A stretch of 44,636 nucleotides of DNA from Patescibacteria group bacterium (GCA_018816385.1 JAHIVK010000054.1:1-44636), one strand, 5' to 3'. Shown: positions 1-44,033, counted from the first letter of the stretch. The notes: generated from the letters alone by a model not told the origin. Made by a program: numbers and translations.

Positions 1-137
1 TAATTATGGATAGATTTTATAGCATTTTCGTTGATTCTGATGACGATAGTAGCCTCAGCTACTTGAGGAAGAAGAAGCAAAGAAAATGCATAAAAGATGC
101 CATAAGTAGCCATTGCCCTTATTTCGCGACAAGTCTA
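1..137 (+). mobile_element. Family A palindromic MITE-like element (left end cut by window edge)
   Basis: Near-identical to 38055..38219; ends in CTTATTTCGCGACAAGTCTA. Confidence 0.85.
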
Positions 138-161
138 TTATATCCTAAACAATTAACCTAT

Positions 162-1586
162 CTAAGGGACTTGCAGTAATGTTAAAGAATTGGTCAATCC
201 TGGCTTTTTCCAGAGCGTACCGTATGCCAGTAAAATCTGATCGCCAGATTTAGCAATCCCCAACTGGGCAAACTGATCCAGGAGCTTTTGAGAACTTTCC
301 AGTTTGTCCGAGTCCGGCAGATTGATAATCATGCCTGTCACATCATACAACAAACTCATTTTGCGATAAGTTTGAGGGTTGCTGGTCAGAGCAATAATGG
401 GGACCTTAGGTCTGAATCGAGCCATCATTTTGGCTGTTTGACCGGTTTCGGTTAAACAAACAATTTTGTCAATTTTGGTCTGACCATTGTTGATAATTGA
501 ATCTTCAACCAAATCAGCTGAGGCTTGAGTCATAAATGAGGTTGTACCGGAAAAGACTGGATGTACTTGTTGACATGGTGCATGTTGTTCGTTAAATTCG
601 GCGATAGTGGCTTGAGTAGCTACGGCCTCAACTGGATACTTGCCAATAGTAGTTTCTTCACTCAACATGACCGCATCAGTCCCGTCGTAGATAGCATTGG
701 TCACATCAGATACCTCGGCTCTGGTTGGTCGAGGATGATCGACCATGGACATGAGCATTTGGGTGGCAGTAATTACGGGTTTAGCGTGTTGGCGACACTG
801 ATAAATAATGGTTTTTTGCCAGTAAGTTAATTTCTGAAATGAAATTTCGACTGCCAAATCCCCCCTGGCCACCATGACCGCATCAGAAGCAATGATAATT
901 TCTTCCAGATGATCAATAGCTGATTGATTTTCGATTTTAGCCACGATGTCTTGAGTTAAATTTCTCTTTTTGAGTTCTGCCCGAAGGATTTCAATATCCT
1001 CCGCAGTTCTGACAAAAGATAAACCAATGTAATCCACCAGTTCGTTGGTGATGATGTCCAGATATTTTTTGTCTTGATCAATCAGGGCGGGTAAGTTAAT
1101 AGTTACTCCTGGTGTATTAAGAGTTTTGCGATGTTTGACTTCAAAATTGCTTAAAGCTCTAGCGTTGAGGCAGTTACCTTCTTTGGATTTGATGATAAAC
1201 TCTCCCAAGCCATCATCAATTAATATTGAACCATCAACACTTAGTGCATCAATCACGGCTTGAGGAATTTGAGGTTGTTTGGGTTGGGGCTCATTTTGTT
1301 CAGAACAAAATTTAATGATTTCATCTTTGACCACTGGGAAAGATTTACCTTCTGCTAAATTAATCCGAATTTCTGGACCTTGCAAATCAAGTAGAATGGC
1401 AATCGGTTGATTCATTTCCTTGGCTACTTGATGAACTCGCTTAATTCTTTCCAAGTGCCAAGTTGGTTCAGAATGTTTAGTATTAAATCTGGCTACGTTC
1501 ATACCGTTTTCGATCAGCAGTCTGATAATTTCAATCGATTCGGTGGCAGGGCCGATGGTGGCCACAATCTTAGTTGCTTTAGTCAT
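162..1586 (-). CDS. pyk: Pyruvate kinase
   Basis: TKIVATIGPA, DLQGPEIR, KIEN, MVARGDL, ATQMLMSM..PRPTRAEVSDV, DAVMLSEET motifs. Confidence 0.97.
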   Translation of the reverse strand: MTKATKIVATIGPATESIEIIRLLIENGMNVARFNTKHSEPTWHLERIKRVHQVAKEMNQPIAILLDLQGPEIRINLAEGKSFPVVKDEIIKFCSEQNEPQPKQPQIPQAVIDALSVDGSILIDDGLGEFIIKSKEGNCLNARALSNFEVKHRKTLNTPGVTINLPALIDQDKKYLDIITNELVDYIGLSFVRTAEDIEILRAELKKRNLTQDIVAKIENQSAIDHLEEIIIASDAVMVARGDLAVEISFQKLTYWQKTIIYQCRQHAKPVITATQMLMSMVDHPRPTRAEVSDVTNAIYDGTDAVMLSEETTIGKYPVEAVATQATIAEFNEQHAPCQQVHPVFSGTTSFMTQASADLVEDSIINNGQTKIDKIVCLTETGQTAKMMARFRPKVPIIALTSNPQTYRKMSLLYDVTGMIINLPDSDKLESSQKLLDQFAQLGIAKSGDQILLAYGTLWKKPGLTNSLTLLQVP

Positions 1587-1680
1587 GAGTCCTTTCCATG
1601 TCCCTCTTGAGTTGTGGTTTAGTTTGGGTTAGAGTGATTTGGTAATTAAGGTAATTGTAAACTAAAGAAGGAGAACTGTC

Positions 1681-2178
1681 ATGGGAGATAACACACCAAA
1701 ACTGCAAACTGGAGATGATATTGCCATAGCGGCGGTTAGTCAACAAACCAAAGAATTAACCGAAGCTGAAGAAGTGGCTCAATCTAATGAATTGGCAGAC
1801 ACTTTAACTTCTCTGCAAAGTCTGATTGAGCGAAATGCCAAAAGGATTAATCAAGTCAGACAAGATTTGAGGGAGAAAAGAGAAAGTTTAAAAAGTGTTT
1901 ATGATAACGACGGCCAGTTGAGTGGCGCTCAGGAAGAGTTAAAACAGTATGACCAGAAAGTTAGAGAGCGCCGAGTTCAAATCAGTAATGATCCTCAAGC
2001 TGTCACCCTTAGAAATGACATTGGTGAATTAAATGAGAGCAAAAAAGACTTGGAAATGGCTTTGAGTGACCACTTGGTTAACTATTACCAACTCACCAAC
2101 TCCACCAGCTTTGATACCAGCGATGGTGATCAATGGGAGTTTAAAATCACGGCCAAAGTCAAGACTCAGCGCAAGTAA
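1681..2178 (+). CDS. Hypothetical coiled-coil protein
   Basis: 165-aa ORF, AAGGAG SD upstream, heptad-like E/Q/K/L-rich sequence. Confidence 0.75.
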   Translation: MGDNTPKLQTGDDIAIAAVSQQTKELTEAEEVAQSNELADTLTSLQSLIERNAKRINQVRQDLREKRESLKSVYDNDGQLSGAQEELKQYDQKVRERRVQISNDPQAVTLRNDIGELNESKKDLEMALSDHLVNYYQLTNSTSFDTSDGDQWEFKITAKVKTQRK

Positions 2179-2186
2179 TCAAAAAC

Positions 2187-2438
2187 CTACTTGGAAATCC
2201 GATCGGCAATCTTTTGCAAGACTAGAGGTGAGATATTCTTCATTCTCTTGAGAGAACGAGATCTTCTTTTAAGTCTTTTGATCTGAATTTTCACAGTGGC
2301 TCTTTCTTTGGAAGGTTTACTGTAGTATTGACCATCTTTGGCATCTTGGACGATGTCGGTCATGGACACCGCCTTCTTGAATTTTTTAATGACGTCATGA
2401 GTTGAATCTTTGCCTTGGGCTCTAATGATAAGTGACAT
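2187..2438 (-). CDS. rpsU: 30S ribosomal protein S21
   Basis: S21-like pattern (DS..DVIKKFKK ... YYSKPS..R, basic tail); strong SD AAGGAGGTGA favours ATG at 2438. Confidence 0.8.
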   Translation of the reverse strand: MSLIIRAQGKDSTHDVIKKFKKAVSMTDIVQDAKDGQYYSKPSKERATVKIQIKRLKRRSRSLKRMKNISPLVLQKIADRISK

Positions 2439-2500
2439 ACGGCTCACCTCCTTCCAAGTCTAGTTAGTCTACAGACTAATCTGAGCGACAATTATACCAT

Positions 2501-2983
2501 CTACTGGCTGGATTGACGGATCTGATGGGCTAGTTGGGCTAAATCTTTATCATCGGCACGAATTGAGTCGTTGGAGCTCAAGTATCCGGGATAAGTTTTA
2601 AAGAATTTTTTGTGGCTTTGGCTCTCGATATTTTTCCAAGCTTCCAGACCTCCCGTACCATGCATGGGAAAAAGTTTGCTGTGAAGATGATCAACGCCAA
2701 AGCCCTCAAAAAACATACCACACCTGGCTACATCTTCAAAGTAGTTGTCAAGAAGTCCTGCAACTTTTTTGGTGGCCACAATTAGTTCGCTCAACACTTG
2801 ATCAGATTGCTCAAAAGCATAGCTAGTATAGTGATCTTTGGGCATGACCACACTAAAACCTTGAGTGTTGGGAAAAATACTTAGGAATGCTAGGTGTTTT
2901 TCATCACTCCAAATGGTGTGTGATGGTACATCTCCTCTGACAATGGCACAAAACAAACAATCTTTTTTATTCAGCTTAAGCAT
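2501..2983 (-). CDS. HIT-family nucleotide hydrolase
   Basis: DCLFCAIVRG N-terminus, AFLSIFPNTQG, variant triad DHLHSKLFP. Confidence 0.88.
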   Translation of the reverse strand: MLKLNKKDCLFCAIVRGDVPSHTIWSDEKHLAFLSIFPNTQGFSVVMPKDHYTSYAFEQSDQVLSELIVATKKVAGLLDNYFEDVARCGMFFEGFGVDHLHSKLFPMHGTGGLEAWKNIESQSHKKFFKTYPGYLSSNDSIRADDKDLAQLAHQIRQSSQ

Positions 2984-3851
2984 AAATTTTTTTGATTAGG
3001 TCAATGATTTTATTTAAACCCAAAGGTGTGGCTTTTTGGCTTCTGTGTTTACGCGACCCGTTTAACAACATTTTGCCACTGGGATGATAATACCAAGTCC
3101 CCTCTGAATCAATTTCCAGTATTTTTGTATAGAGCGACTCGAGACTTAAAGCTTGATCTGGTCGAACTTTAATCCGAACATGCCCTTGTTCGGTATCTTT
3201 TCTGATGACTAGATCATAGCCCATTTTTTGAGCCAGCTTGAGAGTTTCATCATTTCTGGTGTCCAGCGCCAAACATTTGATTGATCCTAAATTAAAGGGC
3301 TGGCCTTTTTCCTTGATAATTTCTTCAGCCTTGATTTGTTGAGTTAAGACAGCATACACACTATCCAGACACTCAAAACCAAAATTGAGTTGTGAGTCAT
3401 CATTGTGGGGATCAAGATACTCCATGCCATGAATTAGCTCGTGAAGCATAAAAGTGTAACGGATGTGATTAGCCTCAGGCCAGGCAATTTCACCAAAATG
3501 ATCGACATCAGTCACATGTTGAACTAGGGCTTGGAGAGCTAAGTCAGTGACCAGTTCTGGGTGAAGTTTTGCTAGATGATCAAAAACTAGAGAACTTGCG
3601 GAAATGTGTTGTAGACCTCTGTCGGGTTGATGGTGATCGAACTCGCCCAGGCCGGTGTCAACATGCACCACTTGACTGGCATCAAAGCCCAAATGCAAGC
3701 GGTTAGTTTCTGATATATTGTCACCAGGATCAACAAAAGCCACTTGAGCCGAGGCATAATCTTGAGCATCAAAGCGCTTGAACAGCCAAACAGCAGTGAT
3801 GGCGTCTAAATCTGGGGCGTGGTGGGTGACAATTAGTTTTCTCTCAGGCAT
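2976..3851 (-). CDS. DHH/MYG1-like phosphoesterase
   Basis: VTHHAPDLDA, HVDTG, FDHHQ metal-binding motifs. Confidence 0.65.
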   Translation of the reverse strand: MPERKLIVTHHAPDLDAITAVWLFKRFDAQDYASAQVAFVDPGDNISETNRLHLGFDASQVVHVDTGLGEFDHHQPDRGLQHISASSLVFDHLAKLHPELVTDLALQALVQHVTDVDHFGEIAWPEANHIRYTFMLHELIHGMEYLDPHNDDSQLNFGFECLDSVYAVLTQQIKAEEIIKEKGQPFNLGSIKCLALDTRNDETLKLAQKMGYDLVIRKDTEQGHVRIKVRPDQALSLESLYTKILEIDSEGTWYYHPSGKMLLNGSRKHRSQKATPLGLNKIIDLIKKIYA

Positions 3852-4047
3852 GAGTGGTCATAGTATACCATCAATAAAAAACCAACCACACCATCCTTAT
3901 AAGGAGTGTTGTAGTTGGTGTTCCCCACCGGGAAAGTAAGCTTAGTATACAATAAATTACACTCAGATATACTCGGAAAATGGTATGCCTCATCAGTCAA
4001 TAGTCATCAGACTTGAGGTAGGGAATAATAACTATAAGCCTAAATAT

Positions 4048-5739
4048 TTATTGTACTTTCTGCGGTAAAAGTTTGGTTAAAACTTCTTTTTTGGATAAGA
4101 CTTGAGATTTTTGGCTGGTTCTGGCTTTCCACTCAACTGCATCTTGGGTTTTTTGAGATACCACCAGTCTGACAGGAGCACCAATCAAATCAGCTACGGC
4201 AAATTTTTTACCAGCTGGTTCGTCTCGATCATCCCACAAAACTTCTGTACCTTGTTTGATGAGTTGATCATAAAGTTGCTCCGCTGACTCTTCTCCACCA
4301 GGCAGAGAAATGAGTTGAACGGCGAATGGAGCCACTGATTTGGGCCAAATAATGCCATGTTCGTCATGGTATTTTTCCACAATGGTGGCCAGAGTCCTTC
4401 CAATGCCAATGCCATAACAACCCATGTAATAGGGTTTGAGTTGGCCATCTTCGGCTTGGTAAGTCGCCCCCTTCATCTTTGATGAGTAGTGAGTGCCTAG
4501 TTGGAAAATGTTACCTACCTCGATACCTTTAACCTCTGTCAACTTTTTGCCTTGATGATTAGTATGACCCGCTTGGGCCAAAGCAATATCGGCCTCAACC
4601 TCGGTTTTAAAATCTCGGCCGTAGTTAACATTAAAAGTGTCAGTTGTTTCAGTTTTTTGACCACCATAGAAGTTGATAACTGTTTTGAGTGATAAATCTG
4701 CCACATACAGTGCTTGATGTCCCCAGGAGTGGACAAAGCCAGGTTTGGTGTCTAGAGTTTTAAGATCTTCTGGAGTGGCTTCATCAAGTAATTCAATAGC
4801 ATCAATAGCTTTTTCTAGTTTAGTTTTATTGACTGTCAAATCTCCTCTGATGGTGGCAATCACAATTTGGCCAGTATCTTGGCGTTTATAAACCACGTTC
4901 TTTAAGAATCGCCACTTGGGTTGTTTAAAGTGAGTCGCTAATTTTGCCATATTGGTCACATCTGTGGGTAAATCTCGAACTTCCATAGGTAGAGGTTTTT
5001 CATCTGGGTTAATTGGCTCGAGCTTAACTTCTGCCACGTCTTCATGGGCGCAGTAACTGTCATCTGCGGTTTCTAAATAGCGGCTCTCCCCCACATTGGA
5101 ATCGACTATAAACTCATGACAGTACTCTCCGCCAATATAGCCATTGTCTGCCAAAACCTGTTTAGTTTTTAAACCTAGTTTTTCAAAGATTTTAAAATAG
5201 GCATCGGCCATTTGCCCATAAGTTTTCTTGAAGGTTTGAGCATCTGTATCAAAACTGTAGGCATCCTTCATTAAAAATTCCCGAGCTCTAAGCAAACCAC
5301 CCCTAGCCCTGAGTTCATCTCTAAATTTTTGGGAGAATTGGTAAATATTAAAAGGCAGATCTTTATAAGACAATTGAAATTTGCGGACCACATCCACAAA
5401 CATTTCTTCGGCGGTGCCACCTAAGGCAAATTTAGCACCGCGCCGATCGGCCAGAGTCATTAAACCAAAGTTGCCAGCATTTTGACGATTAGTTTCTTGC
5501 CACAACTCAATTGGGTGAAGCACAGGCGAGATCATTTCTTGGGCGCCGACCGAATCCATTTCTCGGCGAATAATATCCACTATTTTATTTTGGACTCTCA
5601 TGCCCAGAGGTAACATGAAGTAACGACCGGCCACACTTTCTCTAATAAAACCGCCTTTAACCAACAGTTGATGACTGATAAGTGTGGCATCTTTGCTGGT
5701 ATCTTTGGTGGGTTTGCCAAAAAGCTGTGAATACTTCAT
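4048..5739 (-). CDS. proS: Proline--tRNA ligase (bacterial type with INS editing domain)
   Basis: KFRDELRARGGLLRAREFLMKDAYSF, IEVGNIFQLG, MGCYGIGIGR. Confidence 0.97.
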   Translation of the reverse strand: MKYSQLFGKPTKDTSKDATLISHQLLVKGGFIRESVAGRYFMLPLGMRVQNKIVDIIRREMDSVGAQEMISPVLHPIELWQETNRQNAGNFGLMTLADRRGAKFALGGTAEEMFVDVVRKFQLSYKDLPFNIYQFSQKFRDELRARGGLLRAREFLMKDAYSFDTDAQTFKKTYGQMADAYFKIFEKLGLKTKQVLADNGYIGGEYCHEFIVDSNVGESRYLETADDSYCAHEDVAEVKLEPINPDEKPLPMEVRDLPTDVTNMAKLATHFKQPKWRFLKNVVYKRQDTGQIVIATIRGDLTVNKTKLEKAIDAIELLDEATPEDLKTLDTKPGFVHSWGHQALYVADLSLKTVINFYGGQKTETTDTFNVNYGRDFKTEVEADIALAQAGHTNHQGKKLTEVKGIEVGNIFQLGTHYSSKMKGATYQAEDGQLKPYYMGCYGIGIGRTLATIVEKYHDEHGIIWPKSVAPFAVQLISLPGGEESAEQLYDQLIKQGTEVLWDDRDEPAGKKFAVADLIGAPVRLVVSQKTQDAVEWKARTSQKSQVLSKKEVLTKLLPQKVQ

Positions 5740-5784
5740 GTTTTCTTAGACCAATTAAATAGAATTCTTTCGCTACAAGGCTAC

Positions 5785-6681
5785 CTACTTCCAAAACTCC
5801 ACTTCATCCGCAATCAACTTGGCGATGGAGATGGTTTCTACATTGTGGGGAAGAGTCTGATGATAAATAGTGTTGGTAATCACCACTTTTTCGATGGGTG
5901 CTGATTTGATTTTATCCAGCGCTCCTCCGGCAAATAGGCCGTGAGTGGCTAAAAAGTAGATTTGCTTGGCTCCTTCCGCGTGCAACAGTTTGGCAGTCTC
6001 CACCGCCGTACTGCCCCCCACAATAATATCGTCATATAATATCACCTGCTTGCCTTTGACATCACCCTGAAGACTAACCTCGGTCACTTTACCGGTTTGC
6101 AAATCTCGATGTTTATTAATATTTAGCAGTTCTACGTCAAGTTGTTTGGCAAACTGGCGGGAACGTTTGAGACCGCCAAAGTCCGGGCTCACCACTACTG
6201 TTTGTTTATGATTCAGATGATCTTTGACGTACTCCAGCATCAACTGTTCGGCCGAAATATGAGTGGTGGGCACCGAGAAAAAGGCCGGAATACTGGTATT
6301 GTGCAGATCAATTAAGACCACCCGCCGGACAAATGAGTTGGAAACTAAGTCGGCCACCACTTTGGCCGAGATGGGTTCGCCGGGCGAAAAAACTTTGTCT
6401 TGCAGGGAGTAACCCATCCAAGGGATAACGGCTTCAACCGACTTGGCCCCCATCCGTTCCAGGGCATCAGTCAGCAGGAGAAATTCAATAATTTGTTGAT
6501 CGGCCGGGCTCGAAAAAGACTGCAAAATCACCACGTCTTGGCCACGGACGTCATCCTTCACTTTGACTCGGCGCTCGCCATTGGCAAAAATGTTACTGGC
6601 AATTTTCACTAAAGAAACACCCAAGGCAGTGGCCACTTCAGTGGCCAGTTGGGGGTTGGATGAGCCGGCTATTAGTCGCAT
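5785..6681 (-). CDS. prs: Ribose-phosphate pyrophosphokinase
   Basis: FANGE, IPWMGYSLQDK, VVSPDFGG, YDDIIVGGST, ATHGLF. Confidence 0.95.
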   Translation of the reverse strand: MRLIAGSSNPQLATEVATALGVSLVKIASNIFANGERRVKVKDDVRGQDVVILQSFSSPADQQIIEFLLLTDALERMGAKSVEAVIPWMGYSLQDKVFSPGEPISAKVVADLVSNSFVRRVVLIDLHNTSIPAFFSVPTTHISAEQLMLEYVKDHLNHKQTVVVSPDFGGLKRSRQFAKQLDVELLNINKHRDLQTGKVTEVSLQGDVKGKQVILYDDIIVGGSTAVETAKLLHAEGAKQIYFLATHGLFAGGALDKIKSAPIEKVVITNTIYHQTLPHNVETISIAKLIADEVEFWK

Positions 6682-6774
6682 AAAGCTCCAAGTCGATTTA
6701 CTTTACGAGTTTCGCGCCTCCAGATCGGCTAAACCAAGTTTGGTTTGATTGCCGTAAAACTCGCGTTACTCATT

Positions 6775-6813
6775 GTAGTTTAACTGGTAACCAGGGTTTC
6801 GTCCAGAATGGAT
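6775..6813. repeat. 39-bp conserved site, copy 1 (GTAGTTTAACT-N9-GGTTTCGTCCAGAATGGAT)
   Basis: Both blocks identical, with the same spacing, to 7994..8032. Confidence 0.85.
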
Positions 6814-6865
6814 CATGACTAACAACGATTGATTTAGCTGGCACTTAACTTATGTGCCAAGAATT

Positions 6866-7783: not shown

Positions 7784-7858
7784 AAAATCATTGATCAGTT
7801 AAGTTTGTACTGATCACCTTTTTGGTTTTACAAACTACTGCGGTAATTATATCATAAT

Positions 7859-7987
7859 GCATCTTTTGACCATTTTCCCATTTTTATCTTCCTCAAGTAG
7901 CTCTGGCTACTATCGTCATCTAAAAATGGTGAAAATGTGTCAAAATCTATCATTAATTTCTTTATTTCTTATTTCACTACAAGTCTA
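7859..7987 (-). mobile_element. Divergent, one-ended family A element
   Basis: Shares core CTCAAGTAGCTCTGGCTACTATCG and end CTTATTTCACTACAAGTCTA with 41967..42132; stem arms differ compensatorily. Confidence 0.8.
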
Positions 7988-7993
7988 TTGATA

Positions 7994-8032: not shown

Positions 8033-8044
8033 TGAGACAATTTG

Positions 8045-16096: not shown

Positions 16097-16215
16097 TTTG
16101 TCATCCTCGCGCCTTTTTGTCATCCTCGCGCCTTTTTGTCATCCTCGCGCCAGCGGGGATCCAGGGGCGCAGTTGTCAATCCTGGATTCCCCCCGCCTGG
16201 GCGAGGAGAATGACA
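16097..16215 (+). repeat. Family B REP-like bipartite palindrome preceded by 19-bp tandem copies of its left end
   Basis: (TTTGTCATCCTCGCGCC) x3, then ...AGCGGGGATCCAGG-spacer-CCTGGATTCCCCCCGCCTGGGCGAGGAGAATGACA. Confidence 0.9.
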
Positions 16216-16232
16216 ACTAACGAAAAAAGTCT

Positions 16233-24843: not shown

Positions 24844-24868
24844 TAGACTTTCTGCGGCAGAAAGTCTA
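24844..24868. repeat. 25-bp perfect palindrome made of two family A termini
   Basis: TAGACTTTCTGC-G-GCAGAAAGTCTA; overlaps atpH stop. Confidence 0.85.
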
Positions 24869-27075: not shown

Positions 27076-27114
27076 AGACTTTATTAACTCGTTTTTTATT
27101 TCGCAGAAAGTCTA
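27076..27114. repeat. Family A truncated derivative upstream of the atp operon
   Basis: AGACTTT...TTAACTCGTTTTTTATTTCGCAGAAAGTCTA. Confidence 0.75.
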
Positions 27115-32195: not shown

Positions 32196-32507
32196 ATCAT
32201 TTCTCTTCGCGCCTTGTCATTTTCCTCTCGCGTACTGTCATTCTCCTCGCGTAGCGGGGGGAATCCAGTGGTTGGTCTCATACTCCTGGATCCCCGCTGG
32301 CGTGAGGATGACAGACCCTCTGGATCCCCGCTGGCGCGAGGATGACAGACCCTCTGGATCCCCGCTGGCGCGAGGATGACAGACCCTCTGGATCCCCGCT
32401 GGCGCGAGGATGACAGACCATCTGGATCCCCGCTAGACCCCGCCCAAGCGGGGGGCGCGAGGATGACAGACCCTCTGGACCCCGCCCAGGCTGGGCGTGA
32501 GGATGAC
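32196..32507 (-). repeat. Family B element with tandem array of 34-bp units
   Basis: Four CTGGATCCCCGCTGGCG(C/T)GAGGATGACAGACC(C/A)T units from 32286, two variant units, the opposite arm at 32236 and degenerate arm copies from 32196. Confidence 0.92.
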
Positions 32508-33423
32508 CAGTGCCCGCGGGTTTATTTTGATGAACAGTCTGATTAAGTTCATCCAAAGCTTGTTTAGCCTCGGCTTGATTTGGGGCTCGCCCGTGCCAAT
32601 CGGGATTATTTTCCATAAACGACACGTCCTTGCCAGCCGTCGTGTGGCAGATAATGGCAGTTGGTAGGTGGCACGTGCGAGCCCCATTCAGAGCCCAACT
32701 AATTTGATCAAAATTATGGCCATCAATTTCTACCACTTGCCAATTGCAACTGGTAATTTTTTCGGCCAGTGGTTCCAAGGGGGCAATTTCCTGGGTGGTA
32801 CCATCAATTTGGATGTCATTGCGATCAATCAGAACAGTCAGGTGAGTTAAATGATGAGCGCCAGCGTAACGATAGGCTTCCCAGATTTGGCCTTCCTGAT
32901 GTTCCGCATCACTGGTTTGGACAAAAATGTGGTTGCTTTTGTGGTCTAGTTTGAAAGCTGTGGTCAGACCGCAACCCAAAGACAAACCCTGGCCCAGCAG
33001 ACCCGATGTATTCTCTACCCCCGGCAGTGAACCTTGGTGAGGGTGGCCTTGGAGACGTGAGCCAAACTGTCTTAAAGACCCAAGTTCCTCAAGGGGAAAG
33101 TAACCGGCTTGGGCTAACGTCGCATACCAAACCGGACAGACATGACCATTGGAGAGCAGAAAATAATCGCGCTCTGGCCAGTCCGGTTGATGAGGTCTCT
33201 GCTTGAGGACAGCAAAATAAAGACCAGTCATCACATCAGCCAATCCCAGCGACCCGCCAGGGTGGCCACTGCCGGCCCCAGCGATCATCTCGATCACGTG
33301 GCGCCTAATCTTTTGGGCGATAAAAGCTAACTCCGAGGGAGTTTTTGTTAAACTTGTCGCGAAATGAGGGAAATGATTAACCGGTTTCTTATTTCTGGGC
33401 ACATCTCTTGTCTGATCGGGCAT
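32278..33423 (-). CDS. Transketolase, N-terminal (TPP-binding) subunit with repeat-derived termini
   Basis: SGHPGGSL, LSNGH, LQGHP, GLLGQGL, SDAEHQEG...N, WHG; last ~75 aa read through the family B array. Confidence 0.9.
   Translation of the reverse strand: MPDQTRDVPRNKKPVNHFPHFATSLTKTPSELAFIAQKIRRHVIEMIAGAGSGHPGGSLGLADVMTGLYFAVLKQRPHQPDWPERDYFLLSNGHVCPVWYATLAQAGYFPLEELGSLRQFGSRLQGHPHQGSLPGVENTSGLLGQGLSLGCGLTTAFKLDHKSNHIFVQTSDAEHQEGQIWEAYRYAGAHHLTHLTVLIDRNDIQIDGTTQEIAPLEPLAEKITSCNWQVVEIDGHNFDQISWALNGARTCHLPTAIICHTTAGKDVSFMENNPDWHGRAPNQAEAKQALDELNQTVHQNKPAGTGHPHAQPGRGPEGLSSSRPPLGRGLAGIQMVCHPRASGDPEGLSSSRQRGSRGSVILAPAGIQRVCHPHASGDPGV
33349..33407 (-). repeat. Internally deleted family A element inside the transketolase CDS
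   Basis: TAAACTTGTCGCGAAATGAGGGAAATG matches the element end at 24/27 nt, followed by ATTAACCGGTTTCTTATTTC matching the other end. Confidence 0.8.
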
Positions 33424-33452
33424 TAAAGCTACTATATCAGTTACGCGTTTAA

Positions 33453-33618
33453 TAGACTTGTAGTGAAATAAGAAACGAGTTAATTATGGATAGATTTTAT
33501 AGTATTTTCGTTGTTTCTGATGCCGATAGTAGCCAGAGCTACTTGAGAAAGAAGAAACAAATGAAAATACATAAAAGATGTCATAAGTAGTCGTTGTGCT
33601 TATTTTGCTACAAGTTTA
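33453..33618 (+). mobile_element. Family A MITE-like element, full length
   Basis: TAGACTTGTAGTGAAATAAG ... CTTATTTTGCTACAAGTTTA. Confidence 0.88.
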
Positions 33619-33688
33619 ATAAACACCTAGTTTATGATACTTTTGATACAGACATCAGAACTCAGTCAGTTTATGATGAAAGGTATCT

Positions 33689-35692: not shown

Positions 35693-35716
35693 TAGACTTC
35701 TTTCGAAAAAAGTCTA
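35693..35716. repeat. 24-bp collapsed family A palindrome
   Basis: TAGACTTCTTTCGAAAAAAGTCTA. Confidence 0.7.
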
Positions 35717-35737
35717 ATTGACTTGGATTCAATCAGA

Positions 35738-36496: not shown

Positions 36497-36877
36497 ATGA
36501 GTGAGTGTATGTTTGATCAGACACCACAAGAGAATCCAAAAAAGCTGTTCGTAGGCAGCGTTCCTTATAGCGCAACGGAAGATCAGTTGCGTGATCTATT
36601 TGCTCCCCATGGGGAGTTAGTAGAGGTCAAATTGATTACCGATCGGATGACTGGTCGTTCCAAGGGCATTGCCTTTGTGACCTTCGCCGAAGAGAGTCAA
36701 GCTAAAGCCGCTATCGAAGCCGTCAATGGTTTCGAGATGGATGGCAGAGCTTTGATTGTCAACGTGGCCAGACCTCCACAACCCCGAACTGATCGAGGTG
36801 GTTATAACCGAGGCGGTTATAGCAACGATCGTCGTGATAGTGGTGGTGGCGGTTACGACCGCAGACCTCAGAGGTAA
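36497..36877 (+). CDS. RRM RNA-binding protein with RGG tail
   Basis: KLFVGSV (RNP2), SKGIAFVTF (RNP1), RGGY repeats. Confidence 0.93.
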   Translation: MSECMFDQTPQENPKKLFVGSVPYSATEDQLRDLFAPHGELVEVKLITDRMTGRSKGIAFVTFAEESQAKAAIEAVNGFEMDGRALIVNVARPPQPRTDRGGYNRGGYSNDRRDSGGGGYDRRPQR

Positions 36878-36896
36878 TTTTTTACTTTTGAAATTG

Positions 36897-36922
36897 AAAG
36901 AGCCCTCGCAAGAGGGCTCTTT
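36897..36922. terminator. Bidirectional intrinsic terminator
   Basis: AAAGAGCCCTC-GCAA-GAGGGCTCTTT between convergent genes. Confidence 0.85.
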
Positions 36923-36948
36923 TGGTTTGTGTTAATTTAATCGATTTA

Positions 36949-37425
36949 CTAATTTAATTGCCAGAGCGAAAAATTAAGTAGCGTGGCAAAACTGACCCAA
37001 AGTAAGTATGGCCAGAGTAAACGACTGGCCCAGATGTTTAACTTAGAAAAAAGTCTGATCAGTAGCACAATCATCAACCAAAGAACAATAATAATTGCCA
37101 AAGCCAACCCTAAATTCTTCAGTCCAAAGAATGCGATAGACCAAGCGGAATTAACTACTAAGTGAAGTAAAAATATACTGGTAGCTGTTTTAACTTGAGG
37201 TATTTGATTGCCTTTTGACCAGACTAGATATAAGGCTATACCCATCAGCGTATAGAGAGTTATCCAAACCGGACCAAAGATCCAGTTAGGCGGATTAAAA
37301 TCGGGTTTAACCAAGGTCACATACCAAGTAGAAATGGCAGAGGCAGTGGCTAACGAGCCTATGATCCCAGCTAACTGAGATAAGAGAATAGAAGCAACAA
37401 GTAACAAAGGCTTTTTTATTTTCAC
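36949..37425 (-). CDS. tspO: TspO/MBR tryptophan-rich sensory protein
   Basis: WY..L.KP.FNPPNWIFGPVW..LY..MG, WS..FFG, PYLLWVSFA..LN. Confidence 0.93.
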   Translation of the reverse strand: MKIKKPLLLVASILLSQLAGIIGSLATASAISTWYVTLVKPDFNPPNWIFGPVWITLYTLMGIALYLVWSKGNQIPQVKTATSIFLLHLVVNSAWSIAFFGLKNLGLALAIIIVLWLMIVLLIRLFSKLNIWASRLLWPYLLWVSFATLLNFSLWQLN

Positions 37426-37499
37426 TTTATCCAGTATAGCAAACTACAACTCAGTCAGGGCTGTAATTTAGTTCACATTTGAGGCATAATACCCAAGTT

Positions 37500-38054
37500 A
37501 TGTGGCAGATTTATCTCCAGATTGTGATTCAAATAGTTTTTATACTGCTTTTTATTCGGCAGATTCTAATTGCAGTCATCGCTTGGTGGACTGGGACTCA
37601 GTCTGATGCTCCATTTGAATCTACCAAAGTCAGTATCACCAAAAAATTGGTCCAGGGTTTGAAACTTCAACCAGATCAAAAGATTTATGATCTAGGTAGT
37701 GGTTCGGGTAAGCTAATTTTCACTTTAGCTAAATTGATTAAAAATCCCATGGTGGGAGTCGAAAAGAACTGGCCTTTATTTATGATTTCTCAAGTTAGAA
37801 AATTCATTTCACCTTACAAAAATCGGATCAATTTTCTTCATCAGGACTTGTTCGAGATGGACCTGTCCCTGGCTGATGTGGTTTATATTTACCTCAGTCC
37901 CAAAACCAATCGCAGAATTAAAGCCAAGTTTGAAAAAGAACTCAAGCCAGGAGCAATTGTGATAGCTCTTAGGTGGCAGTTTGAGTTTGATCAATTAAAG
38001 TTAATCAAAACCATTGACGCCATGCACAAGATATATATCTATCGGAAAATTTAA
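37500..38054 (+). CDS. Membrane-anchored class I SAM-dependent methyltransferase
   Basis: N-terminal TM, APF, YDLGSGSG, ADVVYIYL, ELKPGA. Confidence 0.85.
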   Translation: MWQIYLQIVIQIVFILLFIRQILIAVIAWWTGTQSDAPFESTKVSITKKLVQGLKLQPDQKIYDLGSGSGKLIFTLAKLIKNPMVGVEKNWPLFMISQVRKFISPYKNRINFLHQDLFEMDLSLADVVYIYLSPKTNRRIKAKFEKELKPGAIVIALRWQFEFDQLKLIKTIDAMHKIYIYRKI

Positions 38055-38219
38055 TAGACTTGTCGCGAAATAAGAAATAAGTTAATTATGGATAGATTTT
38101 ATAGCATTTTCGTTGATTCTGATGACGATAGTAGCCTCAGCTGGTTGAGGAAGAACCAGCAAAGAAAATGCATAAAAGATGCCATAAGTAGCCATTGCCC
38201 TTATTTCGCGACAAGTCTA
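38055..38219 (+). mobile_element. Family A MITE-like element, full length
   Basis: Perfect 20-bp inverted ends TAGACTTGTCGCGAAATAAG / CTTATTTCGCGACAAGTCTA. Confidence 0.92.
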
Positions 38220-38393
38220 ATAATCATTTAATTCAAATTTTGATTAGTAATTGTGACTACTTAAAATCAACCACTACCTGTTTGCCGTTTTTTTCTGCAA
38301 TCTGATACAAAGTTTCCAGGGTGATATTCTGCCTATCTAGGGGTATAATGTGTGCCTCCACTGAATAATTTGTATATATTTTCAGTCTTGATC

Positions 38394-40208
38394 ATGAACA
38401 TCAGAAATATTGCTATTATCGCTCACGTGGATCATGGTAAAACTACCTTGATCGATGGCATGCTTAAACAAACTCACTTGTTTCGGGATAATCAGTCGGA
38501 GATGAGTCAGTCGACCATTCTTGACTCTGGGGATTTGGAGCGAGAAAAAGGCATCACCATCTTGGCCAAAAATACGGCCGTTTTATACAAAGATTACAAG
38601 ATAAATATTATCGATACCCCTGGTCACGCTGATTTTAGTGGCGAAGTTGAACGAGTCATTAATATGGCTGATGGAGCTTTGCTAGTCGTTGATTCGGCCG
38701 AAGGTCCCCTACCCCAAACTCGGTTTGTTCTGGAACAGGCCTTTAAAAATCACTTAAAGATGATTGTAGTGATTAACAAGATTGATAAAAAGTTAGCCGA
38801 ACCTCAAAAAGTCCTAGCTCAAACCGAAGAGTTGTTTGTGAGTTTGGCAGACGATGCAGAGCAACTTAATTTTCCGGTAGTCTATGCCTCGGGAATTGCC
38901 GGTAAAAGTTGGCTAGAGTTACCCAGTGATTTTAATCAGCCAGCTAACCTAGTGCCTCTGTTTGACACCATTTTGGATTTTATTCCCGCCCCTCAAGCCA
39001 ACGCCACCCTGCCTTTTAAAATGCAAGTGGCCAACATTGACTTTGATAGCTACAAAGGCACTTATGCCATCGGCAAAGTTTTACAAGGCACAGTTAAAAT
39101 CGCTGATCGATTGAATATTTGGACCGAAAATGAAAAAGTTGGCGATTGCAAAATTACTCATCTTTTTACCAGTAAAGGTTTAGAGCGGGTGGAAGTTGAT
39201 GAGGCTTATGCCGGAGATATTATTTTTTTGACTGGGATTGATGAAATCAAGATTGGTCAAACTTTGGCCGATCCAGTTTTGGTGGGTGGTTTACCGACTA
39301 TCCAAATTAGTGAGCCAACTCTCAAAATTCAGATTGCTCCCAATAGTTCCCCTTTTGCAGGTAGGGAGGGAGAGTTTGGCACAGTCCGTCAATTGGCAGA
39401 GCGCTTGAGACGGGAGAAAAAAACTAACATCGGCTTGAAAATTGAAGAACAATCGGGCGATAAAGGTTTTATTGTCTCGGGCAGAGGCGAACTACACTTA
39501 GCTGTTTTAATTGAAAGTATGCGACGGGAAGGCTATGAGATGGAAGTTTCTAAGCCTCAAGTTATCTATAAAGAAATTGATGGTCAGAAACATGAACCGG
39601 TTGAACAACTTAACATCAGAATTTTGCAAGAATATATGGGAGTGGTGACGGAAGAATTGGGTAAACGCTTAGGTTTGCTTCAAGAAAGTCTGACAGATGA
39701 TAAAGGCGTGGCCCACATGACATATCGGGTGAGTAGCAGAAACCTACTGGGTTTTAGGTCTTCAATATTGAGCAAAACCAGAGGCAACGGTTTATTTGAT
39801 GCTCAGTTTTTAGGTTACTTTCCAGTTCAATCAGCCAGTATGAAAAAAATTAGAAATGGCGTGTTGGTGGCCACCGAAACTGGTCAAACCACTGCCTATG
39901 CTTTAATTAGTTTGCAAGAAAGAGGTTTGCCGTTTATGGGTGTGGGTGAACAAGTTTATGCCGGCATGATTGTGGGTTTGGGCAAAACATATGAAGACAT
40001 TGATATGAATGCCTGCAAAGCCAAGAAGTTAACTAACTTTAGGTCAAATGCCGATATTGCCATTCCCCTCGATACACCCATGAGACTGAGTTTAGAACAG
40101 TCGTTGGATTTTATTGAAGATGATGAACTGCTGGAGTTGACTCCCATCAGTTTGCGTTTGAGAAAAAAGATTCTAGATAAGAATCAAAGATATAAAAGAC
40201 AAAATTAA
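38394..40208 (+). CDS. typA: Translational GTPase TypA/BipA
   Basis: IRNIAIIAHVDHGKTTL, EREKGITILAKN, DTPGHADF, GRGELHL, KKLTN.R; start ATG 38394. Confidence 0.97.
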   Translation: MNIRNIAIIAHVDHGKTTLIDGMLKQTHLFRDNQSEMSQSTILDSGDLEREKGITILAKNTAVLYKDYKINIIDTPGHADFSGEVERVINMADGALLVVDSAEGPLPQTRFVLEQAFKNHLKMIVVINKIDKKLAEPQKVLAQTEELFVSLADDAEQLNFPVVYASGIAGKSWLELPSDFNQPANLVPLFDTILDFIPAPQANATLPFKMQVANIDFDSYKGTYAIGKVLQGTVKIADRLNIWTENEKVGDCKITHLFTSKGLERVEVDEAYAGDIIFLTGIDEIKIGQTLADPVLVGGLPTIQISEPTLKIQIAPNSSPFAGREGEFGTVRQLAERLRREKKTNIGLKIEEQSGDKGFIVSGRGELHLAVLIESMRREGYEMEVSKPQVIYKEIDGQKHEPVEQLNIRILQEYMGVVTEELGKRLGLLQESLTDDKGVAHMTYRVSSRNLLGFRSSILSKTRGNGLFDAQFLGYFPVQSASMKKIRNGVLVATETGQTTAYALISLQERGLPFMGVGEQVYAGMIVGLGKTYEDIDMNACKAKKLTNFRSNADIAIPLDTPMRLSLEQSLDFIEDDELLELTPISLRLRKKILDKNQRYKRQN

Positions 40209-40229
40209 AATTTCAGTATGTCGGGCAAA

Positions 40230-40266
40230 CCATAATTAACTCGTTTCTTATTTCGCCACAAGTCTA
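40230..40266 (-). repeat. Family A half element
   Basis: CCATAATTAACTCGTTTCTTATTTCGCCACAAGTCTA; supplies the TAG of the 40264 gene. Confidence 0.85.
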
Positions 40267-41868
40267 ATTACTGATCAATCGATAAAGGGTAAAGTTGTTG
40301 GTTTGAAGAGTTTTTTCCAGGTTGGGATAGGCTTGAAACTGCGGGTAGCTGTTTTTGGCGACTACAATCCAGTCGATTTGGTTTTGATGCAAAAAATCCC
40401 CGGCTTCTGTTTGGCTCAATTGATGGAGGAAAAACCCCTCTTGTTTTGTTTTGGCTTCTTGACCCCGGGGGGTTTGGAGAGTATGTCCGTAAAAGACTGA
40501 CTGATGGGTGACTGATGGCAAATAATTAGCAACTTCATACGGTGCCAGGACTCCCCCACCCGAATCTTGATCAATGGTCGATATCACCTGTTGCAGATCT
40601 GCCGGTAAATAAACCCAAGGGTTATTTTGTGTTACTACATCTATTCTCATGGCAAAGACCAAGACCCGACTGGCAAGAAACAACATGACAAAGAAGATCA
40701 CGACCAATTTTTGAGTGACCTGATCGGTGATTGATTTGAGAGCTAGAAGTAGAATCACGGTTAATGGAAAAAACAGCCCCCTTAGAAAAAATCTGGCGAT
40801 GCCCAGGGGCAGGAGTGATAACACTAAACAGCTCACCACCCAAGTTATCAAGAATGGTAAGTGTCTCGATGTTATTTTTTTTCTTGGCAGGCAATACCAG
40901 ACTGCAAAAAACAAAATAAATACTCCGTAACCAAGTAATAATTGCTCAAGATTGGGTTTGGATAAGACTTGAGTTGCCACCGAGCTGAAACCTGTTTGTC
41001 TTAAGTGCCAGTAGTAGATGAGAGTAGCGATTGAGGTGGTGATCAGAATTGAGCCCCATCTCACCCAAAATGTTTTGAGAAGAACTGGCTTGTTTTTTAA
41101 CCCAAGATTTGCGGTTAATTGAGCCACTTTTGGTTTGGTTAATCCGGTAGGGCGCTCGTGTTTTAAAAAAGCCAGTAGGGGAAAAACCACCATCAGCAGT
41201 AACAGATAGTAGGGATAGAACAAGACGAGTCCCAGCCAACTGATGAGAGATGCCCAAAAGTGTTTGGGCAACCGAGAAACGTCAAGATACCAATACAAAT
41301 TAATCAGGCCGGAAAAGTAAAGCAGGATGCCCAGCGCCTCGTGGGGTCTCTGCAGAGCGCTTTGAAAAGTGAAAGAGGTGATGTAGAGATCGGCCGGCGC
41401 CAGGTTGGAAGAGGCCAGCCAGCCCAGTCCCCCGCCCAGACCGCAGATGGCTAGTCCCAGCAAACTGAGTGATTTTGAGTTGACAAACTGCTTCAACCAG
41501 GAATACAAGCAGACAAGCAGAACAGCGCCAGTGACGATGGCCGTTAGGTGAAAAACCAGACTGGTGGGCAGGGGCAAGACTAAACCCAACAGAGCGTAGA
41601 GGGGATAGAACAAACTGGGTGAGGATAAAATAGTTGTATAGCGATTGGCCAAGAGAAAGTGACCCATTTGGCCGTTTTTAATGGCGGCTAAATAAACGTT
41701 CACATCCCAGGGATCAAACCAGGAGGCTTGGCCGGTGTAGAGCCTGTCGGTTGGAGTTTTGATCCAGGCGTAGAGGTTGGGTAACTGCTGGCTGACAATG
41801 ATCAATAAAATCACCAGCACCAGAGGAAGGTGAATTGATCGAAGCCGAATCATGATCTGTTTGAGCAT
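40264..41868 (-). CDS. Polytopic membrane protein, possibly GT-C fold glycosyltransferase
   Basis: Many TM segments, acidic DPWD motif in the first external loop, soluble C-terminal domain. Confidence 0.6.
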   Translation of the reverse strand: MLKQIMIRLRSIHLPLVLVILLIIVSQQLPNLYAWIKTPTDRLYTGQASWFDPWDVNVYLAAIKNGQMGHFLLANRYTTILSSPSLFYPLYALLGLVLPLPTSLVFHLTAIVTGAVLLVCLYSWLKQFVNSKSLSLLGLAICGLGGGLGWLASSNLAPADLYITSFTFQSALQRPHEALGILLYFSGLINLYWYLDVSRLPKHFWASLISWLGLVLFYPYYLLLLMVVFPLLAFLKHERPTGLTKPKVAQLTANLGLKNKPVLLKTFWVRWGSILITTSIATLIYYWHLRQTGFSSVATQVLSKPNLEQLLLGYGVFILFFAVWYCLPRKKITSRHLPFLITWVVSCLVLSLLPLGIARFFLRGLFFPLTVILLLALKSITDQVTQKLVVIFFVMLFLASRVLVFAMRIDVVTQNNPWVYLPADLQQVISTIDQDSGGGVLAPYEVANYLPSVTHQSVFYGHTLQTPRGQEAKTKQEGFFLHQLSQTEAGDFLHQNQIDWIVVAKNSYPQFQAYPNLEKTLQTNNFTLYRLISN

Positions 41869-41905
41869 TTTTGTTTACTTTCCAGTATAGCTTGATTTTA
41901 AATAA

Positions 41906-41933
41906 TAGACTTTCTTATTTCGCAGAAAGTCTA
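41906..41933. repeat. 28-bp collapsed family A element
   Basis: TAGACTTTCTTATTTCGCAGAAAGTCTA. Confidence 0.8.
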
Positions 41934-41966
41934 CAGTCTGTTACTTTTTGAAAATAGGTATATTAT

Positions 41967-42132
41967 TAGACTTGTAGCGAAATAAGCACAACGACTACTT
42001 ACGGCATCTTTTATGTATTTTCATTTGTTTCTTCTTTCTCAAGTAGCTCTGGCTACTATCGGCATCAGAATCAACGAAAATACTATAAAATCTATCCATA
42101 ATTGACTCGTTTCTTATTTCACTACAAGTCTA
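41967..42132 (-). mobile_element. Family A MITE-like element, full length, reverse orientation
   Basis: Near reverse complement of 33453..33618. Confidence 0.9.
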
Positions 42133-42141
42133 TTTCGTATT

Positions 42142-43434
42142 ATGAAAAAAAATTTTCTATTTGTGTCGTACGATGCCTTAATTACTGATACCGCTTGGCA
42201 GGTAGTTAAAGAGGGGCACCATGTTAAGTACTCAGTTGATGATAAAAAAAGTCAGGATGTCGGGATTGGTTTTGTGCCCAGAACCAAAAACTGGCGGGCT
42301 GAAGTAGATTGGGCTGACGTGATTGTTTTCGACGACGTGTTGGGTCATGGGATTTTGGCAGAAAAACTCCGCCAAAAGGGCAAGCTGGTTGTGGGAGGTA
42401 CCAAGTATACAGATCGACTAGAAGATGATCGCTCATTTGGTCAGAATGAACTCAAAAAACACGGTATCAAGATTCTTCCCTACCAAGAGTTTAATTATTT
42501 TGATGATGCCATTGATTATGTCAAAGCCAACCCTAATTCCTATGTCATCAAGCCGAGTGGTGATGCCCAGAACTATAAAAAGCTGTTATTTGTGGGTCAG
42601 GAAGATGATGGTTTAGATGTACTCAGAGTTTTGAATGCCTATAAAAAAACTTGGAGCGAACAAATAAAAGAGTTTCAACTCCAGCGTAAAGTCACTTCTG
42701 GTGTAGAAGTGGCAGTGGGCGCCTTTTTCAATGGTCATCAATTTATTTATCCAATTAACGTCAACTTTGAACACAAAAAACTCTTTCCTGGTGATTTAGG
42801 AGTGGCCACTGGAGAAATGGGCACCAGTATGTTTTGGAGTGCGCCCAATAAATTATTTTCCGAAACTCTCAAAAAAATGGAACCGACTTTAAAAGAAGAA
42901 CATTATGTGGGTTATGTTGATATCAACTGTATAGTCAATGGCAATGGTATTTATCCTTTGGAGTTTACTTCTAGATTTGGTTATCCAACTATTCAAATTC
43001 AAGCCGAATCGATGCTGATGCCAGTCGGCGAATTTTTATACAAATTGGCTGTAGGTGAAGATTTTCAACTTAAAACTAAACCCGGATTTCATTTGGGGAC
43101 TAGAATAGTAGTGCCACCATTCCCCTACAATGACCCCAAAACTTATAGAACTTTTTCCAAAAATAATGCCATTATTTTTAAAAAGCCTCATTTGGATGGA
43201 GTTCATTTGGAAGATGTAAAAATTAAACAGGGTGAATGGACGATTGCGGGTGACTCTGGGATTATTTTGGTGATTGCCGCCTCTGGTTTAACAATGCTTC
43301 AAGCTCAAACCCAGATGCGAAATAGGATTAAAAACATTGTGATTCCCAATATGTACTACCGGATTGATATTGGCAGTCGCTGGTATGAAGACAGCGACAA
43401 GCTCCACACTTGGGGGTATTTGCGCGAATTATAA
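42142..43434 (+). CDS. PurD-like ATP-grasp ligase (divergent phosphoribosylamine--glycine ligase)
   Basis: LEDDRSFG, VIKP, EHKKLFPGDLG..TGEMG, LEFTSRFGYP, YYR.DIG. Confidence 0.8.
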   Translation: MKKNFLFVSYDALITDTAWQVVKEGHHVKYSVDDKKSQDVGIGFVPRTKNWRAEVDWADVIVFDDVLGHGILAEKLRQKGKLVVGGTKYTDRLEDDRSFGQNELKKHGIKILPYQEFNYFDDAIDYVKANPNSYVIKPSGDAQNYKKLLFVGQEDDGLDVLRVLNAYKKTWSEQIKEFQLQRKVTSGVEVAVGAFFNGHQFIYPINVNFEHKKLFPGDLGVATGEMGTSMFWSAPNKLFSETLKKMEPTLKEEHYVGYVDINCIVNGNGIYPLEFTSRFGYPTIQIQAESMLMPVGEFLYKLAVGEDFQLKTKPGFHLGTRIVVPPFPYNDPKTYRTFSKNNAIIFKKPHLDGVHLEDVKIKQGEWTIAGDSGIILVIAASGLTMLQAQTQMRNRIKNIVIPNMYYRIDIGSRWYEDSDKLHTWGYLREL

Positions 43435-43467
43435 TATTTTATTGATCAAAGCTACAGAAAGAACTAA

Positions 43468-43914
43468 ACGCAAAATACTCAATTAGCTAAAAAAAAGATT
43501 TTAGATTTACTTAAACACACTAACTGTCGACTCAAACCTTCGGTTATTGCCGGCGTAGGTGTATTTGCCATTCGAGATATTCCGGAAGATACAAATATAT
43601 TTTATGGTCAACCTGATCCTAAGTGGCATACTTTTAAAATGAGTCAGTTAAAAAATCTGGACAAGCAAGTTTTAAAAATGATTGATGATTTTTTTGTGAT
43701 TGAAAAAGATCAAACAGTCCAGATTCCAGAAGGAGCATTCGCTGATATGAATATTTCTTATTATCCAAATAATTCAGAGACTCCCAATGCTAAAACTACT
43801 GATGGAGGTTATACATTTGTGTCACTCAGGGATATTAAAAAAGGTGAGGAAATCACGGTGGCTTACAGTACGTATGATGAGAAGTATAAAGTGGATTCAG
43901 TCATCCTCACGTAG
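43468..43914 (+). pseudogene. SET-domain protein with ACG in the start position
   Basis: Frame open from 43468: ..CRLKPSVIAGVGVFAIRDIP...NNSETPNA...RDIKKGEEITVAY. Confidence 0.7.
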
Positions 43915-44000
43915 TGGGGAAATGTCATCCTCGCGTAAGCGGGGATCCAGGAGTGAGCCGGTCGACTGTGGATTCCCCCCGCCTGGGCGGGGAGAATGAC
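43900..44000 (+). repeat. Family B element with extra left-arm copy
   Basis: GTCATCCTCACGTAGTGGGGA, then TGTCATCCTCGCGTAAGCGGGGATCCAGG...TGGATTCCCCCCGCCTGGGCGGGGAGAATGAC. Confidence 0.88.
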
Positions 44001-44033
44001 GACTTAACTCGTTTCTTATTTCATAGAAAGTCT
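44001..44033. repeat. Family A half element abutting family B
   Basis: GACTTAACTCGTTTCTTATTTCATAGAAAGTCT. Confidence 0.75.

Follow-up and report, generated by a model that had tools for sequence, protein, structure and literature searches.

How can a short, non-coding element go on moving, while preserving a conserved structured centre, when none of 139 genomes of its bacterial family encodes the enzyme that would mobilise it? The question is raised by a 44,636-nucleotide stretch of DNA from a Patescibacteria group bacterium (GCA_018816385.1, JAHIVK010000054.1:1-44636; hereafter the window), which is densely populated by a fold-back element that we refer to as family A. The window is the entire contig C14 of assembly G000, which holds 999,501 bases in 77 contigs and has a completeness rating of 97.5%; the initial annotation had described the host as having a small genome, and at ~1.0 Mb this groundwater bacterium bears that out. 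Our analyses indicate that family A very probably represents high-copy, non-autonomous DNA transposons, or MITEs (miniature inverted-repeat transposable elements), in the form of ~165-bp long imperfect palindromes with termini of the IS5-family type. It is a real, dense, and recently amplified MITE family, and this kind of element is already known; the features that rise above routine are the absent transposase, the conserved structured centre, and the existence of several terminus classes. Two findings were unexpected: the arms covary strongly, and the asymmetric central hairpin is better conserved across genera than the termini.

Patescibacteria (candidate phyla radiation, CPR) have small genomes, which are commonly portrayed as containing little mobile DNA. 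Here, a single MITE family makes up ~2% of a 1-Mb genome and occupies most kinds of intergenic spacer, even within the ATP synthase operon. A search of the full-text literature, supplements excluded, turned up no account of such elements in Patescibacteria, CPR, or Parcubacteria, and the phrase "candidate phyla" does not occur in one review (PMC10969869).

Copy number, decay, and target site of family A

When at most 2 mismatches were allowed, the window contained 15 occurrences of the terminal pattern TAGACTTK-N4-GAAATAAG compared to a mean of 0.09 in shuffled sequences (0 of 100 shuffles reached 15), and every copy that had been listed earlier was recovered at its coordinates or within a few bases of them. 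A profile built from 31 full copies (nhmmer) returned 274 raw matches across the assembly, which resolve into 182 places without overlap. Of these, 36 are internal copies of full length, 64 are contig ends (out of 154 in the assembly), 77 are end fragments ("left" in 47 cases and "right" in 30), and 5 are pieces from the interior. Their summed length is 19,468 bases, or 1.95% of the assembly, which is an underestimate because the copies at contig ends are cut; family A is the main reason that the assembly is in 77 pieces. Depth was taken from unitigs of public groundwater runs that contain the window. In run X1, an 80-nt unitig from the element core had a depth of 1349x versus 35 to 37x for unique flanks, with similar ratios in runs X5 and X6, which therefore indicates ~37 copies of the young subfamily. 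Logan unitigs and contigs break at the repeat, and the joints found there fit other copies or a mini subfamily, with no usable empty site among them.

Individual elements are 162 to 168 bp long and non-coding. A possible small open reading frame (ORF) was rejected on inspection, as the ATG-led frame of young copies is broken in diverged copies by single-base indels and by loss of the ATG. The fold of one copy is a long hairpin with an energy of -63.3 kcal/mol on the plus strand (z = -9.1, and -10.7 for the other strand), and the earlier description of a short non-coding fold-back element bounded by terminal inverted repeats (TIRs) is confirmed. Near-identity between copies is also in keeping with that description: the copy at 38055 and one on contig C39 are 99.4% identical, and most other young copies are 95.7 to 97% identical. 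All 36 full copies lie between genes, none overlapping predicted ORFs by more than 51 nt, in a genome that is 87% coding according to a simple heuristic model (962 ORFs), and only 16 of the 182 matches lie more than half within a predicted ORF. The comparison to Rickettsia palindromic elements that had been drawn at the outset fails on this point, in-frame insertion in genes being what these intergenic copies lack.

As had been proposed, the family shows every stage of decay; its copies sit at many unique sites between genes. A 68-bp mini form that arose by internal deletion is present at four loci with unrelated flanks, and since it lacks the interior at all four of these unique loci, the ends alone evidently suffice for spread. 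Half copies across the genome tend to end at element positions 33 to 40, next to an internal TTAATTATG. Because the half copies finish in an ATG and element ends abut stop codons, they affect the gene-start and gene-stop calls made by annotators. On contig C61 (positions 135-200), the terminal 32 bases of the element occur three times in tandem, with a shared TA at each junction.

The element proper runs from AGACTT to AAGTCT and is bounded by 3-bp A-N-T direct repeats. Among 35 full copies, the 3-bp flanks on the two sides agree exactly in 15 (5.2 on average in permutations; P = 5e-5), and the middle base of A-N-T agrees in 22 (10.8 on average in permutations; P = 5e-5); for young copies, this base agrees in 16 of 18. 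Matching flank pairs include the rare A-G-T/A-G-T and A-C-T/A-C-T, all four 68-bp mini copies have matching flanks by our own reading, and 279 of 343 termini in the assembly have an A two bases outside TAGACTT (position -2). Because the two N bases are identical and not complementary, the flanks form a direct repeat and not an inverted repeat or a palindromic target. Family A duplicates a 3-bp A-N-T on insertion, not TA; the initial annotation had read the ends as TA bounded with a TA duplication, but the T and the A in question belong to the A-N-T repeats.

To examine the family in relatives, we searched 140 genomes of the taxonomic family (57 genera) with a covariance model of family A, which recovered full-length matches in 40 genomes and 23 genera at 1 to more than 100 copies per genome. 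Filled and empty sites were compared in the sister genus g11 (15 species) rather than in the genus of G000 itself. At one locus, G010 and G193 carry the element, whereas the site is empty in G190, G192, G194, G195, G196, and G199, where 1 to 3 nt lie between the aligned flanks, and one G193 copy is missing from all nine congeners with an aligned site. These filled and empty orthologous sites indicate that the element moved after the species split; orthologous loci in this sister genus do not always carry it, which favors mobility. A copy in G187 (C1:74438-74602; L300) splits a pair of genes that overlap each other in 11 further species, and there the upstream ORF runs into the element and the downstream ATG stands directly after it. 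Separately, bases 1-84 of L250, a contig from a Candidatus Paceibacterota metagenome-assembled genome, are 100% identical to a young G000 copy, while the other ~2 kb match nothing in G000; this could be a recent transfer, mis-binning, or a chimeric contig.

Cognate insertion sequences and comparison with known MITEs

A scan for the exact terminus pattern in one genome per species returned at least 85 stretches in cyanobacteria (Okeania, Trichodesmium, and others), Patescibacteria, DPANN archaea, and other phyla; among the matches listed, most are MITE-like ends next to host genes. The initial annotation had suggested looking for an insertion sequence (IS) with the same termini around a transposase, and such elements are present in Okeania and in three genomes of the window's order, with none in G000. 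The Okeania element (L191 999-2020; 1022 bp) encodes a 303-amino-acid (aa) ORF with DDE_Tnp_4 (2.5e-29) and HTH_Tnp_4 domains, and its termini match family A at 19 of 19 positions; four Okeania IS copies are flanked by AAT/AAT, and a 282-bp Okeania derivative is flanked by ATT/ATT. A DDE_Tnp_4 search of 286 genomes of the order gave five positives, three of which are ~1.0-kb elements with family-A termini (19- to 21-nt terminal matches): one of 1018 bp in G031, with a 318-aa ORF and TTT/TTT flanks, and those of G073 and G096 (988 bp), flanked by ATT/ATT and AAT/AAT, respectively. The transposases of these cognate elements are encoded by one ORF of 303 to 318 aa, have DDE_Tnp_4 and HTH_Tnp_4 domains, and score below the cut-off of the NCBIfam model transpos_IS5_4 (73 to 98 bits versus 140). 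The insertion sequences that are cognate to family A thus belong to the IS5 family (DDE_Tnp_4), and a Correia- or IS630-like picture does not hold. For study, the family provides an IS/MITE pair in which the termini, the 3-bp A-N-T target, and the ~310-aa transposase are defined.

Small size (less than ~600 bp) without coding capacity, TIRs, target duplication, presence at many unrelated loci, and termini in common with an autonomous IS are the marks by which prokaryotic MITEs are recognized, and family A has all of them. An IS5-like DDE transposase acting in trans would excise family A and paste it into AT-rich A-N-T sites, which would commonly be available between genes and at stop codons. 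Decay by internal deletion at short repeats would then produce the still-spreading 68-bp minis, the half copies, and the 24- to 28-bp hairpins, and the enzyme for the recent burst may have been supplied by an unassembled IS copy or by a transient carrier.

On the basis of its termini and duplication, we place the G000 subfamily of family A with IS5/Harbinger-type (DDE_Tnp_4) elements, as Tourist and mPing are in plants. Like the IS5/PIF-Harbinger MITEs (e.g., the Tourist-type mPing of rice), family A is non-coding, has only its TIRs in common with a DDE_Tnp_4-type autonomous element, and makes a 3-bp AT-rich target duplication. The direct repeat of mPing is given as TAA (PMC6042816), and canonical Harbinger elements are described as having 3-bp target site duplications, with Harbinger/ISL2EU grouping with the IS5 family (PMC12730594). 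Family A differs in that its duplication is A-N-T and not TWA, in its Patescibacteria host, and in that neither its own genome nor its taxonomic family was found to contain an autonomous partner.

Going by description, Nezha of Anabaena/Nostoc is the closest parallel among bacteria, as an orphan MITE with its IS in a different species. Nezha is a 130- to 170-bp orphan MITE with a stable fold and TIRs that match ISNpu3, which is found only in another species, and both filled and empty orthologous sites have been described between related species (PMC3184786). Its direct repeat is 10 bp long (PMC6042816), and it therefore belongs to a different IS lineage than family A. Two further MITE classes appear in Table 1 of PMC3184786: the 100- to 160-bp Correia elements of Neisseria (CREE/NEMIS) and the ERIC/IRU elements of Enterobacteriaceae, imperfect palindromes of ~127 bp. 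Correia elements resemble family A in their fold-back structure, their high intergenic density, and the small genome in which they reside, and ERIC resembles it by description only. Correia elements duplicate TA; in family A, the duplication is A-N-T and the termini are of the IS5 type. ERIC elements have a conserved central core, a family-wide spread, and a copy number that is very different between species; they are not known to have a transposase or a cognate IS, whereas the main terminus class of family A has a cognate IS.

The absent transposase, the structured centre, and rival explanations

We infer that family A is mobilised in trans by a DDE_Tnp_4 enzyme in the organism from which G000 derives, and several observations weigh against this reading. 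No cognate transposase is present in the assembly, and its reported absence from the window was confirmed: DDE_Tnp_4 (PF13359) has no match in G000, is absent from five element-bearing relatives, and was found in none of the 139 further genomes that represent the taxonomic family, and a four-transposase profile run with filters off against all six-frame G000 ORFs of at least 40 aa gave a best E value of 0.69. Absence from a fragmented binned assembly such as G000 is weak evidence because contigs with multi-copy IS elements are often lost, but the family-wide zero covers closed and near-closed genomes too. Family A and the cognate IS elements share only their terminal 19 to 21 nt, and their interiors are unrelated. 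At the empty sites in g11, where spacers have diverged, the A-N-T model comes out 1 to 2 nt short and the TA model 1 to 2 nt long. No filled/empty pair was obtained for G000 itself. In the closest relative examined, G019 (TypA 79% identical to that of G000), blastn did not recover the element, and there is no synteny with G000; when metagenomes were scanned with TypA, all relatives recovered were distant (best, 62%). Finally, the termini of 8 of 23 genera differ from the IS-type terminus at 9 to 12 of 20 positions while the centre is conserved, and a plain MITE model does not predict a centre that is better kept than the termini.

Other candidate partners in G000 were considered and rejected. 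The DDE_3, TnpB, IS110, rve, IS256, and IS1595 transposase families have no match in the assembly. DDE_Tnp_1 (PF01609) loci on contigs C54, C27, C36, and C66 have termini unrelated to family A; the C54 transposase is of the IS5_3 type and is accompanied by a resolvase, and the other three genes are IS4-like. The C54 locus (148-1961) is a ~1.8-kb element in its own right, with 23-nt inverted repeats, the IS5_3-type transposase (DUF4096 and DDE_Tnp_1), and a small resolvase. Pairs of family-A termini 0.4 to 4 kb apart enclose ordinary host genes, and the multi-copy proteins of the genome are large serine recombinases, not DDE enzymes. These recombinases (Resolvase, Recombinase, and Zn_ribbon_recom; C73:23766-25532, C48:7398-8984, C3:3-809, and C27:1-243) comprise 3 to 4 paralogues that are 51 to 86% identical, which is many for a 1-Mb genome. 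In IMG/VR, the only terminus match was a chance match within a coding region, and relatives of the cognate transposase were few and distant (four, 31 to 40% identity). A distant relative of the cognate transposase, with 34% identity, lies at 1455-2106 of L268, a large viral contig (195 kb) in IMG/VR, where a AGACTTGTTGCTTTATAA terminus resembling the Okeania left end is located just upstream.

Structural conservation was assessed with 36 copies from five genera for arm pairing and with an alignment of one copy per genus for the 23 genera. In the 48-pair fold-back, 96.0% of cells are paired versus 84.3% in shuffles, and changes on both sides were observed in 27 of 48 pairs versus 16.0 +/- 1.5, with none of 500 shuffles attaining what was observed; slid controls were 43 to 48% paired. 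Mean pairwise identity across genera is 0.70 in the centre (positions 70-99), 0.60 to 0.61 at the termini, and 0.47 to 0.49 in the arms, and the apical stem covaries; by eye, this stem appears to be closed by a U.U pair, tandem G.A/A.G, and a C-G pair. The 20-nt termini are complementary at 16 to 20 of 20 positions in 22 of 23 genera, and in seven of the eight genera with divergent termini the element's own two termini match each other to the same extent, the exception in both cases being G128 (10 of 20). At least four terminus classes are found on one core. One alternative class, GAACTCATTG..., occurs in G133, G202, and G150, and the alternative terminus GAACTCATTGCAAAATTC is repeated on several contigs of G202 (L366-L383; 12 matches versus 1 in the control, including collapsed hairpins), which indicates that this class has its own history of spread; no transposase-sized partner was seen for it in G202.

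G.T mismatches outnumber A.C mismatches on the aligned strand, with 66 versus 30 cells and 25 versus 15 distinct events, but by our own estimate the event ratio is not significant and too weak to serve as a strand test; the excess is a hint of a constraint on a single strand, either RNA or single-stranded DNA (ssDNA), and not proof. A second constraint of this kind may act on the element alongside transposition, in which case compensatory changes would keep the arms complementary and the central hairpin, which is asymmetric and has an internal loop rich in G.A, would be retained across genera. A resemblance of the central CUGAUGA and GA-rich strings to hammerheads or k-turns was dismissed, as CUGAUGA is not conserved across genera, and we make no claim for it. 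At the gathering score, Rfam 15 identified only a tRNA-Lys in the window, and matches at E values up to 10 were limited to sub-threshold miRNA and snoRNA families that we consider noise.

The conservation of the centre can be read in two further ways. It is possible, although we regard it as unlikely, that the central hairpin and not the transposon ends is the unit under long-term selection, with the IS5-type termini being just its latest vehicle and the enzyme coming from outside. The AGUAGC/GCUACU-type stem would then act as RNA or ssDNA in a module that binds a host factor or nuclease and serves, for example, mRNA processing or the element's own propagation; at least four pairs of complementary termini would have been fitted to this core in different genera, and a phage or other transient carrier would supply the enzyme. 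Less probable again is that family A is a host-selected structured RNA gene or a cis-regulatory hairpin (a module for mRNA processing or stabilization, or a terminator) whose mobility is incidental or past. The higher identity of the centre, the covariation of apical hairpin and arms, the several terminus classes, the excess of G.T over A.C mismatches, and the presence of the element in 40 of 140 family members when none of 139 has the cognate transposase would all fit such a function, but the event ratio is not significant and no Rfam family is matched at the gathering score. The copies moreover show no orientation bias relative to neighboring genes (36 co-oriented and 29 antisense downstream; 37 and 25 upstream), different genomes hold anything from a single one to more than 100, lineage-specific insertions have empty orthologous counterparts, target duplications flank them, and the 68-bp minis reached four unique loci without the centre.

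Different enzymes have also to be weighed against an IS5-type transposase. A Correia-like or IS630/Tc1-type MITE duplicating TA would account for ends that nearly all read TA-GAC...GTC-TA and for flanks that look palindromic (A-N-TA-N-T), and at one Chlamydiales locus a terminus lies 144 nt from an IS630-type (DDE_3) ORF. We nevertheless consider this very improbable: the identical N bases fall within the duplication, that ORF has no second matching terminus, G000 has no DDE_3 match, and the elements that do bear both termini encode DDE_Tnp_4. We give slightly less credence still to a REPIN-like hairpin moved as ssDNA by a Y1 transposase (RAYT or IS200 type). Compensatory change that maintains hairpin complementarity is consistent with it, and an IS200-type tnpA 3' end with a hairpin is repeated at the start of C4 and the end of C7; however, Y1 elements (IS200/IS605) are not known to have TIRs or a target duplication, both of which family A has, the IS200 end hairpin is unrelated to family A in sequence, Y1_Tnp was found in G000 only as sub-threshold C-terminal fragments, and TnpB is absent from the assembly. 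The two contig ends (C4:1-140 and C7:10800-10940) have in common the last ~32 tnpA codons and a GC hairpin, which indicates that an IS200/IS605 element is present in at least two copies with its body outside the assembly.

Copies in the window and neighboring repeats

The gene content of the window is ordinary housekeeping (an ATP synthase operon, SecA, several aminoacyl-tRNA synthetases, pyruvate kinase, and TypA/BipA), and all window copies of family A, which are listed below, fall between these genes.

Table 1. Family-A copies and remnants in the window (percent identities are to the copy at 38055..38219 unless noted)
Feature	Position	Strand	Remarks
Young copy	1..137	+	Element positions 29-165, first 28 bases lost at contig end; 97.1%; 24 nt downstream of pyruvate kinase ORF (162..1586, minus strand)
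Old divergent copy	7853..7987	-	Model positions 1-134, far end missing; 74.4%; between two minus-strand ORFs
Collapsed 25-bp hairpin	24844..24868	.	Two termini only; in atpA-atpH spacer
End fragment	27076..27114	-	Model positions 1-39; upstream of ATP synthase A-chain ORF
Decayed ~60-bp internal-deletion (mini) copy	33349..33408	+	By-eye comparison with 68-bp minis; overlaps predicted start of transketolase N-terminal ORF
Full copy	33453..33618	+	85%; A-A-T repeats at 33451-33453 and 33618-33620
Collapsed 24-bp hairpin	35693..35716	.	Left terminus fused to last bases of right terminus at AAG microhomology
Full young copy	38055..38219	+	Element proper 38056-38218; A-A-T repeats at 38053-38055 and 38219-38221, the left one overlapping TAA stop of ORF 37479..38054
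End fragment	40228..40266	-	Model positions 1-39; between convergent typA/bipA ORF and ORF 40264..41868
Collapsed 28-bp hairpin remnant	41906..41933	.	–
Full copy	41967..42132	-	86%; 97% complementary to copy at 33453; A-T-T repeats at 41965-41967 and 42132-42134
Family-A end fused to GC-rich family-B repeat (43923-44004)	43998..44034	-	Same A/B chimera on C58 and C1

A second, GC-rich repeat, family B, is itself a fold-back with units GTCATCCTCGCG...GGGGATCCAG and is located at 16097-16218, 32286-32483, and 43923-44004 in the window as well as at C58:10055-10206 and C1:5697-5876. It takes the form of single repeats, a 34-bp tandem array, and chimeras enclosed by or fused to family-A ends. The tandem array (32278-32555) lies inside the 3' end of the ORF for the N-terminal half of transketolase (32278..33423); the Pfam match of this ORF stops at residue 289 of 381, and the repeats appear to add ~90 in-frame residues. 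At 36899-36947, groundwater runs X2, X5, and X6 have 154 other letters in place of 47 bases; the gene for an RRM protein, encoded at 36497-36877, is followed by a terminator-like hairpin that lies among the replaced bases.

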